Of a stretch of DNA of 64,000 nt, positions 1,864 to 36,451 are shown one piece after another. The notes beneath the pieces are model-generated. The model was given only the letters and a program-made list of their open reading frames with translations, made no database searches and was not told the origin of the DNA. This DNA is from Thermoproteota archaeon (lineage in GTDB: Archaea > Korarchaeota > Korarchaeia > Korarchaeales > Korarchaeaceae): positions 576,001 through 640,000 of the forward strand of contig JAOZGC010000002.1 of the NCBI GenBank assembly GCA_027491915.1, given 5' to 3'. The position numbers and the translations under genes are program-made. The first letter of the stretch is position 1. Every line of letters begins with the position of its first letter.

Positions 1864-3252
1864 GTGGCGGGTTCCGGCTCTATAGGAGAGGATGATAGAC
1901 TGCCCGATTTCCTGAGGGAATTCTTCGGCCTCCCCTGGACCAAGGTGGCCGTGATAAGGGGGGGACCCGGAACCGGGAAGACCGCCCTGGCCCTGACCAT
2001 CTCGGAGTGGCTGGTCGAGACCGGCCGTGAGGTGATATACTCCAGCTCCGACGTGTCGGAGGAGAGGCTGGCGGGCCAGTTCCCATGGATACGGGACCTC
2101 CTCGGATCCGGCCTCTCGGTGAGGGCGGGGCCGGTCCGGGCCAGGGAGCCGCGCCACCTTCCACTGATATTCTACGAACACGTCGAGGAGGCCCCGGACG
2201 CCATAGTCATAGACTCCTGGAACTCCTTCACCTACGAGCTGGACGAGAGGGACGCCCTCAGGGCCGCCAGGTCGGTCAGCGAGATGACCAGGAAGTACGG
2301 CGGGAAGGTCGTGCTCATAGAGGAGGGGGACGGCTGGTCCCCCCTGGACTACGTGGCGGACGTCCTGATCGGGCTGGACAGGACCCTCCTGGGCGGGAGG
2401 GTGATGCGGAAGGTGACCCTGGAGAAGGTCAGGGGGCTCGGGGTCTCCTGGGCCAGATCCCCCTTCACCCTGGCCGGGGGGAGGTTCAGGATCCTGAGGC
2501 CCCGGAGCTTCTCCCCGCCCCCCAGGGGGGAGAGGGAGCCCTTCCCCCCGGCCGACCTATCCCGGGATCGCCTGCCGCCCGGGGTCGCCGGGATGGACGA
2601 GATCCTGGGGGGAGGGTGGAGGAGGGGGACGGTCAACCTGATCAAGCTCGGGCCCGGGGCCGGGGTGGCCTACATGCCCCTGCTGGCCAACCCCATAATG
2701 GCCTTCCTCAACGGGGGAGGGGCGTACGTGAGCATCCTCTCTGGCAGGTTCAGCCCAGAGTCGGTGGTGGACGTCCTCCTGGGCGGGTACGTGCCCGACG
2801 TGGAGGACAGGGTGGCCTTCGCCTTCCCGGGGAGGTACCGCTACTCCGGCCGCCTGAGGGTGCTCTCCCCCGAGGGCGAGAGCGCCGAGGAGTTCCTCAT
2901 AGTCCTGGACGAGGCCGAGGAGGCGATGAGGGCCAGGTCCGGCGACGGGAGCATAATCTGGTTCGTGGGGCTGGACAGCCTCGAGTGGTCCCTGGGCATG
3001 GAGGGGGCCCTGAGGGCCTTCCGCGCGATATCCATCAAGACCAGGACCAGGGGGGACCTGTGCTTCGCGGTCTCCAGGGAGGACCAGCTCCTGCCCGGGT
3101 ACGTGGCCGACTCGGCCGACACCCTCTGGGAGATCTCGTCGGAGGAGGGGGTCCCCATACTCTACGGCCTCAACCCCCACACCGGGGCCTTCGGCGTGGA
3201 GGCGGACTACTCCGGCCCGCTGCCCAGGGCCGAGGTGATCCCCATACTCTGA
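1864..3252 (+). CDS. RAD55/KaiC-family (GvpD-like) two-domain P-loop ATPase
   Basis: Walker A GGPGTGKT, Walker B IVIDS, DYVADVLI and LEKVRG motifs; second RecA-like domain (GMDEILGGG) with degenerate P-loop; GTG start after the TATA-like TATATTTA. Confidence 0.75.
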   Translation: MAGSGSIGEDDRLPDFLREFFGLPWTKVAVIRGGPGTGKTALALTISEWLVETGREVIYSSSDVSEERLAGQFPWIRDLLGSGLSVRAGPVRAREPRHLPLIFYEHVEEAPDAIVIDSWNSFTYELDERDALRAARSVSEMTRKYGGKVVLIEEGDGWSPLDYVADVLIGLDRTLLGGRVMRKVTLEKVRGLGVSWARSPFTLAGGRFRILRPRSFSPPPRGEREPFPPADLSRDRLPPGVAGMDEILGGGWRRGTVNLIKLGPGAGVAYMPLLANPIMAFLNGGGAYVSILSGRFSPESVVDVLLGGYVPDVEDRVAFAFPGRYRYSGRLRVLSPEGESAEEFLIVLDEAEEAMRARSGDGSIIWFVGLDSLEWSLGMEGALRAFRAISIKTRTRGDLCFAVSREDQLLPGYVADSADTLWEISSEEGVPILYGLNPHTGAFGVEADYSGPLPRAEVIPIL

Positions 3253-19226: not shown

Positions 19227-22200
19227 CTATCGCCTCCCTCCTCCCGGGAGGAGGGGTATCAGGATCACCTCAAAACCCATGTCCGCGGCGAGGGCGGCCC
19301 CCCTGGCGTCCGACAGGGCCACCCCGCGGACCCCGACCTCTGCGGCGGCCAGCAGGCCGGCCGCCAACTCCAATCCCATGCCCGTCCCCCTCGCGAGCGC
19401 GAGGGCCTCCACGAACCTACCCTCGTCCAAGCCTATCACCTCGACCTCCCCCCCGACGAGGAGTCTCTCCACCATCGGAGCCACGGCCGGGTCTCCCATC
19501 GCCACGGACAGCGTGGCCTCGGACACGGCCGCCCTGAACCCCCCCGTGAGCTCCTCCAGGCCGCCGCCCGAGAGCGCGGCGAACCTCAGGGAGCCGTAGT
19601 CGAGGAGGGTCAGCCTGCCCCCCCTTCTCCTCCTTATGGCCAGCATCAGGAGGGCCGCGGCCGGCAGGGCGAGCGGACCCTCGAACGAGGCCGCCGCCAG
19701 GGAGGACCTGGGTATGGTGACGACGCTGGAGGCCCTCAACCCGTAGGGCGGCAGCTCGGCCACGTTGATCACGTCCCCGGTAAGCCCGGCCGATGCCCTG
19801 GCCCTGAAGGAGACCACCATGACCTCGCCCCCGCCCACGCGGGCCTCCACCCTGACGACCCCGCCGGAGGCCGAGGCCGCCCTGACGAGCGCCCCCTCCA
19901 CCGAGAGCGAGCCCGGCACGACCCTGACACCGCCCGGGAGATTGTCGACCAGGGTCACGTCCGCGGCCCCGTCGCTGCGGACCGTCACGACGTACGATAT
20001 GGCCCCGCCGCCGAGGTAGCTCCCCGCCTTGCTCAGGCTCACGTTGGGTGGCGGGGGGAGGACCCTCAAGGCGCAGTCGGCCGACAGGTTCCCCGCCGTC
20101 ACCGAGTTCACTACCTCCCCGCCCGCCCCCCCGACGACGACGGCCTGGAAGGAGGCCCTGAAGGCCTCTCCCGGGGAGAGCGGCCCCACCCTCCACCTGA
20201 GCGTCCCCGAGGAGTACTCAGCTTCCGGGGAGGCCGTCCCGGCCACGTACCTCAGGTCGGCCGGCAGCCTGTCCTCCACGACGACCTCCCCGGAGGGTCC
20301 GTCCCCGGAGTTCTCCAAGGAGATGGTGAAGGTGACCGCGCTCCCCAGCGCCACACCGCCGGCCGGGCAGGTCTTCCTCAGGGTGAGCCTCGGGGCTGCC
20401 GTGACGTTCGGCCCGCGCGCCGGCCCGGGGGGGTAACCGCCCACTATCCTCACGGCGGCCCTGGCCACCTCTTCCCCGCCGTAAACCACCGTGTTGTAGA
20501 CCACGTCCGTCCCCCTGGGCCTGGCCACCGCCTCGGCCTCGAACTCGACGTCCGCCGCCTCCCCCGGGTCGAGCGGCGGGAGGCTCCAGGTGAGGGAGCC
20601 CCCATCCCGGGCGGGCTCGGCCGGGACGCCGTCGACGGAACCCGACCCCCCGACGTACCTGAGCTCCGGCGGCAGCCTGTCGGTCAGGACGACGCCGGAG
20701 ACCCTGGTCTCCCCGACGTTCTCCACGACTATCCTGAACCCGACCCTATCCCCGACCCCTATAGTCCCGGGACGGGCCTCCTTCGTGAACCTGAGCTCCG
20801 GCGGCCGGGGCCTGACTCCCGGCCGGGGACAGGCCAGGTCCGGCTCCACGACCTCCGCCCCTACCAGCCCTCCTCCCCTCAGCGGGATCTGGGAGCCGGA
20901 AGGGTGGAATGTCACCGTGAAGTTGACCGAGGCGTAGTACCGCGGGAGGTCCGGGGCCGCCGGGTCAGGCCACCAGGATCCCACCCACTCCCCCCCGGGG
21001 GGGACCGGGGCGCCCGGGCTCTCGCACCGGACGAGCCTGGATCCCGCCCCCCCGGGGGGTCCCCCCTCCCAGACGCAGACCCCGTCCAGCTCGTAGTCCA
21101 GCCCGGAGGCCAGGTTCTCGAAGGAGGGCCTGACCAAGTACCCGGACTCGGTTCTGTTCTTCTCCACGCCCGCCGCGGCCGGCCCGACCGCCCTAAGGGA
21201 GGTCACCCTGCCCAGTATGGAGGCCCAGTCCCTCTCGTAGTAGAGGATGGCCGCCGGCAGCCGGGCGGACGCGGTCAGGGTGGCCCTCCCCCTCAGGGTC
21301 GCCGAGCAGGACTGCCCCGCCGAGACCGAACCGATCGTCCAGTTGAGGACCCCGCCGTCGATCGATACGGATCCGCAGCTGGCCGACGCCGACGTCGGCC
21401 TCAGCCAGCCCGGGATCTCCTTGGTGAGGCGGACCCCCCGGAGGTCGCGTGAGAAGTCCAGCCTTATCTCCACCCTGACCACCCCGGGGGACCCGCAGGC
21501 GGCGGAGTAGGACGTCGACTCTGAGGCGGACGCCGGGAAGTCCGCCAGCGACGGGTCCGCCTCGTACCTCCACCTCACCCTCCCCCCGGGCGGGAGCTGC
21601 GGGACGTGCAGCGGGGGGGCGGCGGTCGAGTTCGAGGGGATCGGGTAGTCCGGGTAGATCGAGTAGCCCGACGGGTCCAGGTCCACCCACACGTCGTAAA
21701 CCGGATCCGGGCTCGGGTTGGAGACCGTCAGGAGACCCCAGAGCCTCGACACCTCCGCGGTGCCGTTGGGATAGAGAGTGGCCTCGACGAACTCCCGGGC
21801 CGACAGGTTGATCCCGCCCGGCGGGTCCAGGCCAACCTCGAGCGCCTCCGACAGCTCGTAGTCGGAGGAGCCGCAGGCGGCCGACCCCATCGTGTACCTG
21901 ACCAGCGCGCTGTCGTCCGCCGATCCGGCCGGGCCCAGGTCCACCCTCCACCAGTAGACTCCCCCCGAGCTGCCGGCGTGCGGGGGGTCCTCCCAGGTGA
22001 GGCCCATCCCGTCGGGGATCTCGTCGTAAACCAGGATCCCGACGGCCGGATTATAGGCCCAGTTCGTCACGTTCAGGGTCACGTTGTACTCGCAGGGGGA
22101 CGCCGGCTCGATGGACTTCCTCACCGTCAGGTTGAGGGAGAGCCTCCCCACCCTGACGTCGGGGCCGAACTCCGAGGTCCCGTTGCCCGGGAGGCTGGCC

Positions 22201-28847: not shown

Positions 28848-29642
28848 TCACCCAACCCCCCGGGAGGGGCCGCCGCGACCGGTCCTAGACCTGAGGATGG
28901 TCGCGATCCCCGCCGCCGCGACCGCCGCGGCCGCGGATCCCCAGAGCGCGGCGTAACCGGGCACCGGAAGCCTCGGCAGCGGGAGCCTGCTGGTCTCCAC
29001 CCGGACGTCCAGGGTCCGCCCCGGCCCCAGGCCGGAGAGGGGCCAGCCGTCCCCCTCGGGTGGGGGATCGGCGTAGGTTATGACCTCGCCCTCGGGTGGG
29101 GTGATCAGGAGGCGACCCCCCTCCACCTCGGAGGACAGGGGGCCCAGGGTCAGCCGCGACTCCTCGAACAGCACCCCCCTGGTCGAGACGCCCCCCACCT
29201 CGAACCGGATCTCGAACCGCTCGCTCTCCCCGGGCCTGAGGGGCTGCCACATGGAGCACCTGATGATCAGTGTGTCCCCCTCCCTCATGGCCACCACCTC
29301 GAGCTCGGCGCCCCTGGTTGGGTCCCTCCCCTCCAGTCCCTCCACCGAGAGGTTCCCTCCGCCCCTGGGGGCCAGCCTAAGGATCACATATCCGGGGACC
29401 ACCGGCACCTCCCCGTCGTTCCTCAGGACTCCGGCCACCCTGAACCCGGCCGAGCCCGAGTCGCTCAGGCTGACGTCAACGTCCAGCCTCTCGAAGACTA
29501 TCGGGTTCTCGGCCTGGGCCGCCGCGCCGCGGACCCCGGGGGACGCGAGGGCCAGGGCGATCGCGAGGATGAGAAAGAGACCGGGCGGCGGGATCGGTCC
29601 GACCCGGATCCCCCGCCCGAGCGGGCGCGTATGGACCCTCAC
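28848..29642 (-). CDS. Membrane-anchored single beta-sandwich surface protein
   Basis: GTG start overlapping the upstream stop; signal peptide LFLILAIALALAS; C-terminal TM followed by RSR. Confidence 0.75.
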   Translation of the reverse strand: MRVHTRPLGRGIRVGPIPPPGLFLILAIALALASPGVRGAAAQAENPIVFERLDVDVSLSDSGSAGFRVAGVLRNDGEVPVVPGYVILRLAPRGGGNLSVEGLEGRDPTRGAELEVVAMREGDTLIIRCSMWQPLRPGESERFEIRFEVGGVSTRGVLFEESRLTLGPLSSEVEGGRLLITPPEGEVITYADPPPEGDGWPLSGLGPGRTLDVRVETSRLPLPRLPVPGYAALWGSAAAAVAAAGIATILRSRTGRGGPSRGVG

Positions 29643-31825
29643 CCTCGGCGCGACCTCCACCGCAGAAGGAGCGCCTCCAGCGCGGCCGCCGCCAGGACCA
29701 CCGCCGCCACCAGCGGCTCCGGCGTGGACGCCCCCAGCGCCACGCCGGCGCTCGGGGTGATCACGGCCGAGGCGTCGAGGGTGTTCCTGGGGTCGACGCC
29801 GACCACGTAGACGTCGGACACGTTGTAGTCTCCCGACCCCTGGAGGCAGTAGTGGACCACCACCGGGTTGTAGATCGGCATGTTGAGGTTGGGGTACAGG
29901 CCCTGGGCGGATATCACCACCTTTCCGCCCCCGGATATCCCGTCCTGGACCCAGGAGACCGTGAAGTTGGTCTCGCCCGGCTGGCCGTCGTAGACCGTGA
30001 AGGTGGACCCCTCCGCCCTGTCGGTCCCGTTGACGTTGACCGTTGAGTCGTCCACGGGGTACACGTGCAGGTGGACCGTCGTCCCGTTGGCCAGCACCAC
30101 CGGCTCGTCCCTGGCGTTCCCGCTCCCGGTGCCGGCGAACCAGTCGGAGAATCCCCTCTGGGGCGCCGGTATCGGGTAGCTCTTCCAGACGTACCCGGAG
30201 GAGTAGCCGGTCGGGTTGGTCTTCAGGCTGTAGTCCGGCGGGCTGCCGCCCGGATCGGCGTCCTGGGCCAGCATCGAGAGGGGCCTGAATATCATGTTCC
30301 CCTCGGTGGCCGCCGGGTTGGCGGCGAATCCGGCGGGCACGAGGTCGTAGAACTCCACGTAGGGGGTCGGCCACTCGCCCACGTTGTGGAGCTCCACCGT
30401 CACGCACACCACGTTGCTGGTGCCGTTCCCCCTGACCTCCTTCCTGGCCTTGACCAGGTATCCCCTGACTGCCCAGATCTTCTCCCTGACCACGTAGACC
30501 GAGTAACCGGACGAGTTCTCCCCGTTGATCGATCCAGTGTAGTTCCACCAGCCGTTGACCTCATCCCTCTGTATCCTGAACCTGAAGCTGGCCCACACCT
30601 TGGGCACCCCGGAGTAGGTGAAGTTATAGGGGGAGGAGGGGTGCCGGTAGGATGTGGAGGCCTCGCCCGGGCCCACCGAGGCCAGCGGGGAGCCGCTGGA
30701 GGTCTGGTTGGTCCCTGATATGAGCCCGGTCCCCGGATCCCTGCCGGTGGTGGCCCAGACGCTGGCCCTGACCACCTCGTAGTCGAAGGTCCCGCTCGTG
30801 TCGTAGAACACGGCGGCCTCGGTCCAGCTGTCAGCCTTCTTGGTCCCCTGCTCCTTCTGCGTCTCCAGATCAGCCCTGCCGACGGAGTACACGTAGCCGA
30901 CGTAGTTCCCGGTCAGGGTCCCCCCGTAGTGGAACTGGACGAAGATGGTGCCCATCCCTATCTTCTGGGTGCTCCCGCCCACCTCGGACAGGTCAGGCGT
31001 CCCCTGGATCTTGGCGTTCCTCAGGTGTACCGGGCTGCCCGCCGTCACGGTGAACCAGTTGTCCGGCCAGCTCCCATCCCCCGTCCAGTACAGCGACTTG
31101 CCGTCCGCCGAGAGCGACGTCCCCCCCGCGTCCGGGGTCCCGCCGTCCGTGAACACGGGGTTGTTGGCGGCGTTGGCCCACCCGTCGCCGGCCTTGTTGT
31201 CCGCCGGGAGGACCTTCCTGACCCTGACGCTGACCGAGGGCAGCGTGGTGTCGATGGTCAGATTGAGGCTTATCTGCTGGCTCTGCCCGTCCACTATCTT
31301 CTCCGGGTAGATGGACTCGCTGACCTCTATGGGGGGGCAGGCGGACATCCTCGACCCGTTGACCACGTACCGCAGGACCACCCTGTCCCCGGGGCGGAGC
31401 TCCGTTATGTGCACCCAGGTCATGGCGGCAGGGTCACCGTATCCGGCGGCCGGGTAGGTGTTGATCACCCAGTTGGGCGCCGACTCCTGGGTCACCGAGG
31501 CGTAGGAGGGGCTCTCCTCCACAGTCAGGGCGGTTATGTAGTAGCCAGAGGGCACCCCGCCCAGGTAGAGCGGCACCCACAGGTCGGACGCGACCTCCGG
31601 CGCGCCGTTCTTTATGGTCACGTTCCCGGTCACGTTCCACGGACCGCAGAGGGAGTGCACCCCGTCCGTCTCGACGGTCGCGTTGACGGACTCCGTCAGG
31701 TATATGCTCAGGGGGGCGTCCGGGTTTGCCGCGACCCTCAGGACGTAGGCCGAGGAGGAGAGGAGGAGGGACAGGACGGCGAATCCCAGGATTCGCATCC
31801 CTCGCAATCCTACCACCTTATTCAA
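29639..31825 (-). CDS. 728-aa secreted, C-terminally anchored beta-rich glycoprotein
   Basis: Signal peptide, NxS/T-rich, ends YVVGVDP-linker-TM-RWRSRR; start may be ATG 31798. Confidence 0.85.
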   Translation of the reverse strand: MNKVVGLRGMRILGFAVLSLLLSSSAYVLRVAANPDAPLSIYLTESVNATVETDGVHSLCGPWNVTGNVTIKNGAPEVASDLWVPLYLGGVPSGYYITALTVEESPSYASVTQESAPNWVINTYPAAGYGDPAAMTWVHITELRPGDRVVLRYVVNGSRMSACPPIEVSESIYPEKIVDGQSQQISLNLTIDTTLPSVSVRVRKVLPADNKAGDGWANAANNPVFTDGGTPDAGGTSLSADGKSLYWTGDGSWPDNWFTVTAGSPVHLRNAKIQGTPDLSEVGGSTQKIGMGTIFVQFHYGGTLTGNYVGYVYSVGRADLETQKEQGTKKADSWTEAAVFYDTSGTFDYEVVRASVWATTGRDPGTGLISGTNQTSSGSPLASVGPGEASTSYRHPSSPYNFTYSGVPKVWASFRFRIQRDEVNGWWNYTGSINGENSSGYSVYVVREKIWAVRGYLVKARKEVRGNGTSNVVCVTVELHNVGEWPTPYVEFYDLVPAGFAANPAATEGNMIFRPLSMLAQDADPGGSPPDYSLKTNPTGYSSGYVWKSYPIPAPQRGFSDWFAGTGSGNARDEPVVLANGTTVHLHVYPVDDSTVNVNGTDRAEGSTFTVYDGQPGETNFTVSWVQDGISGGGKVVISAQGLYPNLNMPIYNPVVVHYCLQGSGDYNVSDVYVVGVDPRNTLDASAVITPSAGVALGASTPEPLVAAVVLAAAALEALLLRWRSRRG

Positions 31826-35685: not shown

Positions 35686-36075
35686 TCACCGCTTCCCCCG
35701 GCCGCCCGTCCTCCCCCGGGCCGCCTCGACGACCCCGAGGTCGTCCACCAGCGCCACCCCCCTGGCCACCTCCTCGGCGAACCTGGGGGCCTTCTCCAGC
35801 AGCCGCGCGAGGTCCCCGGGCCTGAGGGGCATGGGCTCTATCCCCGGCCTCAGCTCGGCGGAGATCAGGTCGAACCTCCTCAGGGGATTCTCCGGCAGCC
35901 TGGGGGACACTATCAGAACGTCTATGTCGCTCCACTCGTTGAAGTCGCCCCTGGCCGTGGACCCTATGACTATCACGGAGGCCGGCCTGATCGAGGGGTA
36001 CACGGCCTCGGCGAACTCCCTGGCCAGCCTCAGCCTGAGCTCCCTCTCCCTCCTCCTCCTCTCAAGGATCTCCAC
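35686..36075 (-). CDS. MNT antitoxin
   Basis: IGSTARGDFNEWSDIDVLIVS. Confidence 0.9.
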   Translation of the reverse strand: MEILERRRRERELRLRLAREFAEAVYPSIRPASVIVIGSTARGDFNEWSDIDVLIVSPRLPENPLRRFDLISAELRPGIEPMPLRPGDLARLLEKAPRFAEEVARGVALVDDLGVVEAARGRTGGRGKR

Positions 36076-36451
36076 AGGGACTCCACGTAACCCATCACGG
36101 CCCTCGCATAAAAGATGGACTCCTCCGCCTCGGACCTGGTGTAGTACTCGTGGGGGCCCCCTCGCTCCACATGTCGGCGTACCTCGGGGCGGTGTAGAAC
36201 TTGTCCAGCCTGGCGCAGGCCTCCCTTATCTCCGGCGGCGGGTCGCCCACCTCGGCCAGGAGGCGGGTCAGGCTGTGGCCGAAAGCCGGCCGTCCCACTC
36301 CCCACAGGTAGGCCTTCAGGGCGAACTCGGCCGCCTGCTGGGCCTTGAAGCAGGCCCAGTTGTAGTAGCCAGCCTCCAGGTCTCCCTCGGCCGACCTGAG
36401 GGTGTGCCTCGCGCTGGACATCCAGCGCTCGAACTCGCCGGAGTCGAGCAT
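36030..36451 (-). pseudogene. HEPN domain gene with -1 frameshift
   Basis: WACFKAQQAAEFALKA...GHSL...APRYAD continues in another frame as HEYYTRSEAEE; one C missing in a C run near 36154. Confidence 0.8.

Follow-up and report, generated by a model that had tools for sequence, protein, structure and literature searches.

The window analysed here is a stretch of 64,000 nucleotides from the genome of a Korarchaeaceae archaeon (assembly GCA_027491915.1, contig JAOZGC010000002.1, positions 576,001 to 640,000), and all coordinates below are positions in this window. Three genes on its minus strand, with overlapping or nearly abutting ends, encode the 728-aa protein P0002, a small membrane protein and a giant surface protein of 3204 aa. 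A preliminary description of positions 20900-22140, which correspond to giant residues 2234-2647, had claimed that the giant holds the two modules of P0002 in swapped order. Profile alignments with their controls bear this out, with the modules arranged A-B in P0002 and B'-A' in the giant, and we conclude that the giant is very probably a fusion, in frame, of two genes from a conserved cluster for archaeal surface proteins. The swap is then only apparent, since the fusion sets the last part of one protein directly before the first part of another. The genes and their parts are given below, with signal-peptide sites and membrane helices assigned by eye here and throughout.

29639..31825, minus strand: P0002, 728 aa (open reading frame, ORF, and translation), with signal peptide, module A, module B, tail and C-terminal membrane helix
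30545..31720, minus strand: P0002 module A, residues about 36-427, with a mu-homology-domain-like fold (AlphaFold2, AF2, model of 39-418)
29789..30496, minus strand: P0002 module B, residues about 444-679, a DUF11-like beta sandwich that contains an insertion of ~150 residues and has VGVDP (29789-29803) at its end
29720..29788, minus strand: P0002 tail after VGVDP, RNTLDA.AV..P, conserved and modelled as disordered, with a predicted local distance difference test score (pLDDT) of about 27
29648..29719, minus strand: P0002 C-terminal membrane helix and the basic residues after it (model helix 703-726; sequence)
28848..29642, minus strand: small membrane protein, 264 aa, with signal peptide, beta-rich domain, LPLP..P.Y motif and membrane helix
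19227..28841, minus strand: giant surface protein, 3204 aa (ORF)
21822..22136, minus strand: giant B' domain, residues 2236-2340, ending in VGLDP (21822-21836)
20844..21812, minus strand: giant A' module (residues 2344-2666), similar to the mu-homology domain and containing a DUF11-like subdomain (2438-2534)
19752..20804, minus strand: three DUF11 repeats of the giant, residues 2680-3030 (Pfam DUF11 at 126.1 bits, cut-off 24.6; jackhmmer coordinates)
19230..19679, minus strand: giant membrane helix (3055-3069), RRRR and a C-terminal domain of ~129 residues (sequence), the domain beyond the helix being presumably cytoplasmic

The GTG start of the small membrane protein overlaps the P0002 stop codon (GTGA). 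Homologues of P0002 number 43 and are about 690-735 aa long, the named ones coming from Korarchaeota according to their source names. Neither Pfam nor NCBIfam gave a match for P0002, the small ORF or the C-terminal tail of the giant, and the precomputed families on P0002 homologues are PF27408 and PF27409. The AF2 model of P0002 has a mean pLDDT of 82, with a low-confidence linker between modules A and B and a disordered stretch (678-704) before the membrane helix. In the giant, Beta_helix and DUF11 were found above their Pfam cut-offs and MG2 below its own (30.6 bits, cut-off 32.8), and the NCBIfam matches were TIGR01451 (102 bits, 3 stretches) and choice-of-anchor X.

The tail of the giant behind its membrane helix (19230-19616, minus strand) is kept in other Korarchaeal giants (BLASTP E-values 2e-20 to 4e-4), and a surface adhesin with a conserved tail on the far, presumably cytoplasmic, side of the membrane is unusual. 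That this extension might be a separate in-frame gene was considered and dropped, since other giants conserve it behind the membrane helix.

Modules A and B in P0002 and the giant

The relation between modules A and A' needs profile-profile methods, as the P0002 family hidden Markov model (HMM) finds 50 residues of the giant at 5.6 bits only in a plain hmmsearch. BLASTP aligns P0002 29-418 with giant 2334-2643 at 36.6 bits (E 2e-5, 23% identity), and hhalign of the P0002 family (38 sequences) against the giant reaches probabilities of 95.9-96.9 and E-values of 6e-9 to 1e-10 over ~270 columns. Judged by these alignments, giant 2344-2666 is a remote homologue of P0002 module A. The internal subdomain of A' (2438-2534) is DUF11-like, with a jackhmmer E-value of 1.3e-17.

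For module B the pairwise evidence alone is weak: BLASTP of P0002 B against B' gave an E-value of 0.098 over the last 25 residues only, and hhalign on the single sequence gave 1e-3. With family profiles on both sides, hhalign gave a probability of 97.8 and an E-value of 6.8e-13, compared to 0.15, 4.5e-4 and 0.13 for the control in which P0002 B was aligned with the three ordinary DUF11 repeats of the giant family. On this comparison giant 2236-2340 is specifically related to P0002 module B. Korarchaeal P0002 B carries an insertion of ~150 residues (about 500-650; 29876-30328, minus strand) that is missing from the compact B of a P0002-like protein in the complete chromosome G200, described below. 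This compact protein has a full-length match to the B' HMM (positions 14-113, E 1.8e-16).

Against Pfam DUF11 (PF01345) B' scored 16.2 bits, less than the cut-off of 24.6, and the P0002 B module had no Pfam DUF11 match. Aligned with the first DUF11 repeat of its own family, B' reached an hhalign probability of 95 (E 3.4e-8). By these scores B' is a remote relative of DUF11 and not a member at the level of Pfam. P0002 residues 456-678 superpose on MG and pilin-type sandwiches with Z of 8-9.5, DUF11 repeat 1 of the giant superposes on CLIPPER and pilin domains with Z of 11-12, and ESM Atlas gave leads of DUF11 type only (0.77-0.80, below the useful range).

Both copies of B end in the pattern [GS].Y.L...VG[VL]DP, with VGVDP at P0002 675-679 and VGLDP at giant 2336-2340. 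In the P0002 model (B, 444-677) the last strand, YVVGV (673-677), is part of the B sandwich. The six-frame ORFs of this genome (1.3 million residues) contain the bare pentamer VG[VLI]DP 20 times, and none of the ordinary DUF11 repeat proteins matched in the HMMER search has the longer end motif [GS].Y.L..[AV]F.VG[VLI]DP. Across the alignment of 38 P0002 sequences G676, V677, D678 and P679 are invariant (38/38), and in the tail that follows R680 and P691 are invariant while N681, T682, L683, D684 and V688 are conserved in at least 90%. The placement of the junction at VGxDP in the preliminary description proved correct, with A' beginning 3 residues past VGLDP in the giant.

The fold of module A was recognised from two AF2 models that reach the same PDB fold independently. 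In P0002, module A is modelled at a pLDDT of mostly 80-95. Foldseek matched it at an E-value of 1e-8 to the mu-homology domain (MHD) of adaptor mu subunits, it aligns with AP2 mu2 170-435 in VIA-align (Z 15.7, root mean square deviation (rmsd) 3.6, 237 of 250 residues), and a search of 48,161 chains independent of Foldseek found the MHD at Z 14.9. The giant segment 2220-2800 was modelled separately with a mean pLDDT of 77, and A' gave a wide VIA-align match at Z 17.3 (rmsd 3.0-3.7, 214-235 aligned residues). All of its top ten rows are MHDs, from AP1-4, COPI delta, Syp1 and SGIP1, and the next are single-domain matches of at most 132 residues. Over the searches with A and A' together, the top 10-11 rows are all MHDs (48,161 chains), with overall rmsd of 2.9-4.0 and 214-244 aligned residues. 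The resemblance thus extends over the whole domain with its two beta-sandwich subdomains, at Z 14.9-17.3 and with ~90-95% of the solved domains covered. At the sequence level, adaptor families are absent among the Pfam matches of module A or A' at E-values up to 0.1-1, and mu subunits are absent in a profile search of PDB sequences at E-values up to 10, which gave no other match of relevance either. As modelled, module A reproduces the whole fold of the eukaryotic MHD, be it by homology or by convergence. The signal peptide, the sequons and the C-terminal anchor, all read from the sequence, point to an extracellular location for the A-type module.

Two lineages with the same gene cluster

Within HMMER reach the cluster is found in two lineages only, the class Korarchaeia and a Methanosarcinales-type order. 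We sampled 40 Korarchaeia genomes; genomes within a lineage are kin, and the counts given here are not independent events. An HMMER search with giant 2225-2680 returned, among its matches, giants with the same B'-A' junction. Four database proteins stop one residue past VGVDP and another stops 13 residues past it. In the protein P0052, B' runs into VGVDPR and a linker, and a membrane helix, RRKK and a signal peptide come next, before A' begins.

A' is present in 20 of the 40 Korarchaeia genomes, and 18 of these 20 have a single ORF in which B' ends 1-5 residues before A'. The linker from B to A in this fused form is Pro/Gly-rich and 3-9 residues long. The two remaining arrangements are found in genomes G033 and G020. 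G033 has 51 residues between B' and A', consisting of an anchor helix, RRKK and a signal peptide (a hairpin form). In G020 a 2681-aa ORF on one contig ends in VGVDPPGYCPLWWQEGGK and a stop codon just after VGVDP, and an 862-aa ORF on another contig, with signal peptide, A', DUF11, helix and tail, lies directly behind the genes for P0002 and the small protein. In the A' tree G033 is nested inside the fused forms with support of 100/100, so its separation and hairpin are secondary. We conclude that in Korarchaeia the fused state preceded both separations.

Homologues of P0002 are likewise found in 20 of the 40 genomes. In 12 genomes the homologue is on the same contig as the B'-A' junction and 7-10 kb upstream of it. 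Both P0002 and A' proteins are present in 18 genomes, and the 4 discordant genomes are 63-86% complete. We had considered P0002 as a universal S-layer protein and dropped the idea, since only 20 of the 40 genomes of the class carry it. Two irregularities were seen in this sample. The B'-A' region of the giant is present in two copies in G034 (on C78 and C94), and the match to P0002 is split in two in G008, and in five genomes it contains a single in-frame stop (four with TGA, one with TAA); the genomes with irregular P0002 matches are G008, G010, G014, G030, G033 and G034.

A single distant match to A' only, P0084, led to one metagenome-assembled genome (MAG) labelled Methanosarcinales and another labelled ANME-2. 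At its locus a B-type domain closes a 2091-aa ORF, and the ORF after it opens with a signal peptide followed by an A-type module. In the order of genome G040, the Methanosarcinales-type order named above, the A-type anchor protein is present in 14 of 201 genomes. A P0002-like protein is found in the same 14, and in at least 11 it shares the contig with the anchor protein, no more than about 9 kb away. At all 13 loci with upstream sequence, the ORF preceding the anchor gene ends 1-4 residues past its B-type domain. The tails of these 13 ORFs read VGVDPQ or VGVDPV (6), VGVAPQ (1), VGMFS (1), VGLF (2), VGVF (1), TGVANS (1) and TGAGHS (1). The ATG of the next gene, which encodes a signal peptide and then A, overlaps the stop codon in the 12 loci parsed by script (G080 left out), at an offset of -1 in 9 and +2 in 3. 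The P0002-like proteins of this order have a counterpart of the P0002 tail, GIDPxY[ST]LxMQ.TP, in 13/13 cases.

The whole cluster can be seen in the complete chromosome G200, where the P0002-like protein (A, compact B, tail, helix) and a small membrane protein are accompanied by a 1180-aa protein ending in VGVDPQ and a stop codon and by a 645-aa protein with signal peptide and then A. Both lineages have the P0002-like protein and the small membrane protein together in this cluster. The small membrane protein of the window matches its homologue in G020 (BLASTP E 1e-36), an ORF in the Methanosarcinales MAG locus L038 (BLASTP E 3.6e-16) and the G200 protein (phmmer E 1.3e-14). A motif LPLP..P.[YW] before the membrane helix is common to the small membrane proteins of the window and of the Methanosarcinales-type clusters.

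The suggestion in the preliminary description that homologues might end or be split at VGxDP therefore held: the four database proteins end one residue after VGVDP, the 13/13 upstream ORFs end 1-4 residues after B, and G033 and G020 are split there.

Around the cluster in the window, a DNA-methyltransferase-like ORF with a DPF.G.GTT motif lies just upstream of P0002 (31919-32554, minus strand), and a SufC/SufBD-like pair lies on the strand opposite to P0002 (33707-35669, plus strand). Two small adjacent ORFs follow (35686-36451, minus strand) that resemble a nucleotidyltransferase and HEPN-like pair, with a GS.ARGD...D.D motif and the HEPN-like partner upstream. All three assignments were made by eye.

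Explanations of the B-A junction

In the fusion that we propose, one gene of the cluster encodes a large secreted protein that closes with a DUF11-like sandwich of the B type, its end reading ...F.VG[VLI]DP. A second gene encodes a membrane-anchored protein with the A-type module at its mature N-terminus, followed by DUF11 repeats, a helix and the far-side tail. In the Methanosarcinales-type order the two are found as separate genes whose stop and start codons overlap, and in Korarchaeia the second has no signal peptide any more and B passes directly into A. P0002 is a third and old member of the cluster, present in both lineages, that holds A, then B, then the anchor in one chain. The preliminary description had named fusion of two adjacent paralogous genes as an alternative to its own preferred view. 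The fusion is strongly supported by the separate genes elsewhere, but the two genes are not paralogous, each of them carrying one of the P0002 modules. Since B ends as the C-terminus of separate upstream proteins, VGxDP forms the final strand of B and its cap, and thus the natural C-terminus of the upstream protein.

We also infer that B docks on A. What suggests this is the overlap of stop and start codons, the strict co-occurrence, the fusion itself, and the large protein being without an anchor when it is separate and has no hairpin. Overlapping codons, co-occurrence and fusion are classically taken to mark proteins acting together in a complex. The anchor-less large protein would be held on the cell by its anchored partner where the genes are separate, and fusion would hard-wire the B-A pair. 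A complex prediction of P0002 36-700 with a second copy of 441-700 scored 0.00 and 0.00, relative to a mark of 0.32, and says nothing for or against binding.

Several points weigh against this account. G[VLI]DP is invariant wherever the chain continues (71/71: 38 P0002, 20 Korarchaeal B' ends and 13 P0002-like proteins), and at the true C-termini of the Methanosarcinales-type upstream proteins the DP is kept in only 6 of 13, so that it is dispensable where B is the C-terminus. A purely structural role of VGxDP does not obviously predict this pattern. Nor does a plain domain boundary account for the strongly conserved tail that P0002-type proteins of the two lineages carry behind VGVDP. The B'-A' junction in the giant model has a pLDDT below 50 (model residues 105-123), and no computation in this analysis supports the docking of B on A. 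Finally, G020 has a long branch (1.5) in the A' tree and its placement is unsure, and the change between the two lineages, the only ones with the cluster within HMMER reach, may have been either fusion or fission.

The preliminary description favoured a different meaning for the junction, that of a head-to-tail polymer in which VGxDP is a processing, ligation or strand-donation signal. This view gained no direct support: the modules are modelled as confident domains, the DP is present at 6/13 C-termini, and no exosortase was found in this genome. It was not refuted either, given the invariance of G[VLI]DP in chains that continue and the conserved tail behind it in P0002-type proteins. Its strand-donation form is a minority reading that we consider distinctly improbable. 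Here the B domain, or the stretch after VGxDP, would pair with the first strand of the A module of another molecule, and the B'-A' junction of the giant would reproduce covalently the contact between P0002 subunits, or the one between the large protein and its anchor. The reading concerns function and is compatible with an origin by fusion. Donor strands are used by archaeal threads and bundling pili, and mu2 binds YxxPhi peptides by beta augmentation. By eye, the mature N-terminus of the A-type module is its first strand, directly after an AxA-type cleavage site, and the tail after G[VI]DP (TLDASA or SLNMQST) loosely resembles that strand ([SP]L[NED][LM][QE]). In a scan of the tail against the anchor proteins this match ranks 1-3 of 411-585 windows in 4/4 proteins, and the tail is conserved in both lineages; however, the likeness amounts to 5-7 residues of an alternating beta pattern and the scanned sequences are kin, so the rank test is weak. 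The first strand of four mu chains (159-169) aligns to B' 72-83, beside the first A' strand in the giant model, but this placement is taken from alignment ranges and is indirect. Also contrary to strand donation, AF2 models each P0002 module as a confident domain and includes the last B strand (673-677), residues 456-678 of B match MG and pilin sandwiches that are complete, and the P0002 tail comes out as disordered. In the giant model the end of B' has a pLDDT below 50.

Less likely than strand donation, and in our view very unlikely, is that VGxDP is a site of processing or ligation. A cut at Asp-Pro would regenerate the two proteins of the Methanosarcinales-type arrangement, and the new C-terminal Asp may join another molecule. 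Such Asp-Pro autocleavage takes place at GDPH in mucin and in inter-alpha-inhibitor heavy chains and is followed by ester formation. The pattern described above speaks for it, as G[VLI]DP is invariant where polypeptide follows and dispensable at true C-termini, and exactly one residue follows the DP in six large proteins and in the four database proteins. However, the motif is not GDPH, the residue after G[VLI]DP being P, R, T, L, S or A and never H, and in the giants a variable Pro/Gly linker follows the DP. Strands also commonly end in Asp-Pro, and there is no experimental or computed sign of cleavage. The exosortase/archaeosortase family (PF09721) has 0 matches in this genome, which is 91% complete, where the positive control M. 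jannaschii matches. The remaining explanation, that there is no specific relation at all and the giant simply has generic Ig-like DUF11 similarity, with an A' followed by DUF11 repeats and nothing swapped, is scarcely credible. It draws on the three DUF11 repeats that do follow A', on the remote relation of B' to the first of them (hhalign probability 95), and on the weakness of the pairwise evidence for B. It is contradicted by the E-value of P0002 B to B' (6.8e-13) as against those to the downstream repeats, by the end motif that ordinary DUF11 repeat proteins are without, and by the full-length match of the compact G200 B to B'.

Building on the fusion, a more far-reaching proposal can be made that we regard as unlikely, though conceivable. 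The A-type module could be an extracellular prokaryotic relative of the MHD, a receptor that captures the C-terminal B of its partner by beta-sheet extension with its own N-terminal strand. It would tether anchor-less giant adhesins and would be hard-wired by fusion in Korarchaeia, and P0002 could chain itself or cap the system.

The swapped order is in itself ordinary, as fusions of genes at domain boundaries are well known. Beyond it, the analysis describes an uncharacterised surface-protein cluster of 3-4 genes common to Korarchaeia and the Methanosarcinales-type order, in which the same two modules have three natural connections: separate, joined by an anchor and signal-peptide hairpin, and fused. 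If B does dock on A, this would be how giant archaeal adhesins are tethered, and if the resemblance of A to the MHD is homology, it bears on the origin of a building block of eukaryotic vesicle coats. In the literature we found no paper joining mu-homology or adaptor terms with archaeal or prokaryotic terms, the Greek letter being unsearchable. As far as our searches reach, the cluster, its three topologies and the mu-homology-like extracellular module are undescribed.

Comparison with known systems

The situation is most readily compared to Rosetta-stone fusions, where the parts always co-occur and are encoded in one lineage by two neighbours whose stop and start codons overlap (13/13 loci, G200 cluster) and in the other by a single ORF. 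Unlike in those cases, the partners here are extracellular, fusion costs one of them its signal peptide, the same modules recur in the opposite order in a third member of the cluster, and two secondary separations have taken place at the same boundary (G033, G020).

The modules can be set beside known domains as well. In its C-terminal part the giant has three genuine DUF11 repeats (126 bits), comparable to DUF11/TIGR01451 and the pilin or CnaB-type Ig-like domains of fibrillar adhesins, whereas the B type is a distinct subtype below the Pfam cut-off that has its own terminal motif and is always the last extracellular domain. The A-type module shares the whole two-subdomain fold of the MHD (clathrin-adaptor mu, COPI delta, muniscins) in two independently modelled paralogues. 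It differs in being predicted as extracellular and rich in N-glycosylation sequons, not part of a cytosolic coat, in having no sequence match, and in its DUF11-like inner subdomain.

As a cell-surface system, the cluster is similar to the SlaA/SlaB S-layers, to cohesin-dockerin and to donor-strand pili and archaeal threads in that the gene of a large anchor-less protein lies beside that of a membrane-anchored partner. In such two-component anchoring and donor-strand systems a terminal Ig-like domain on one protein meets an N-terminal strand on the other, as the binding of B to A would do here. The pair of arrangements, A-B in one protein and B-A in another, also recalls circular permutation by duplication, but A and B are separate domains of different genes, and B-A comes from the joining of two proteins and not from reordering within a fold.

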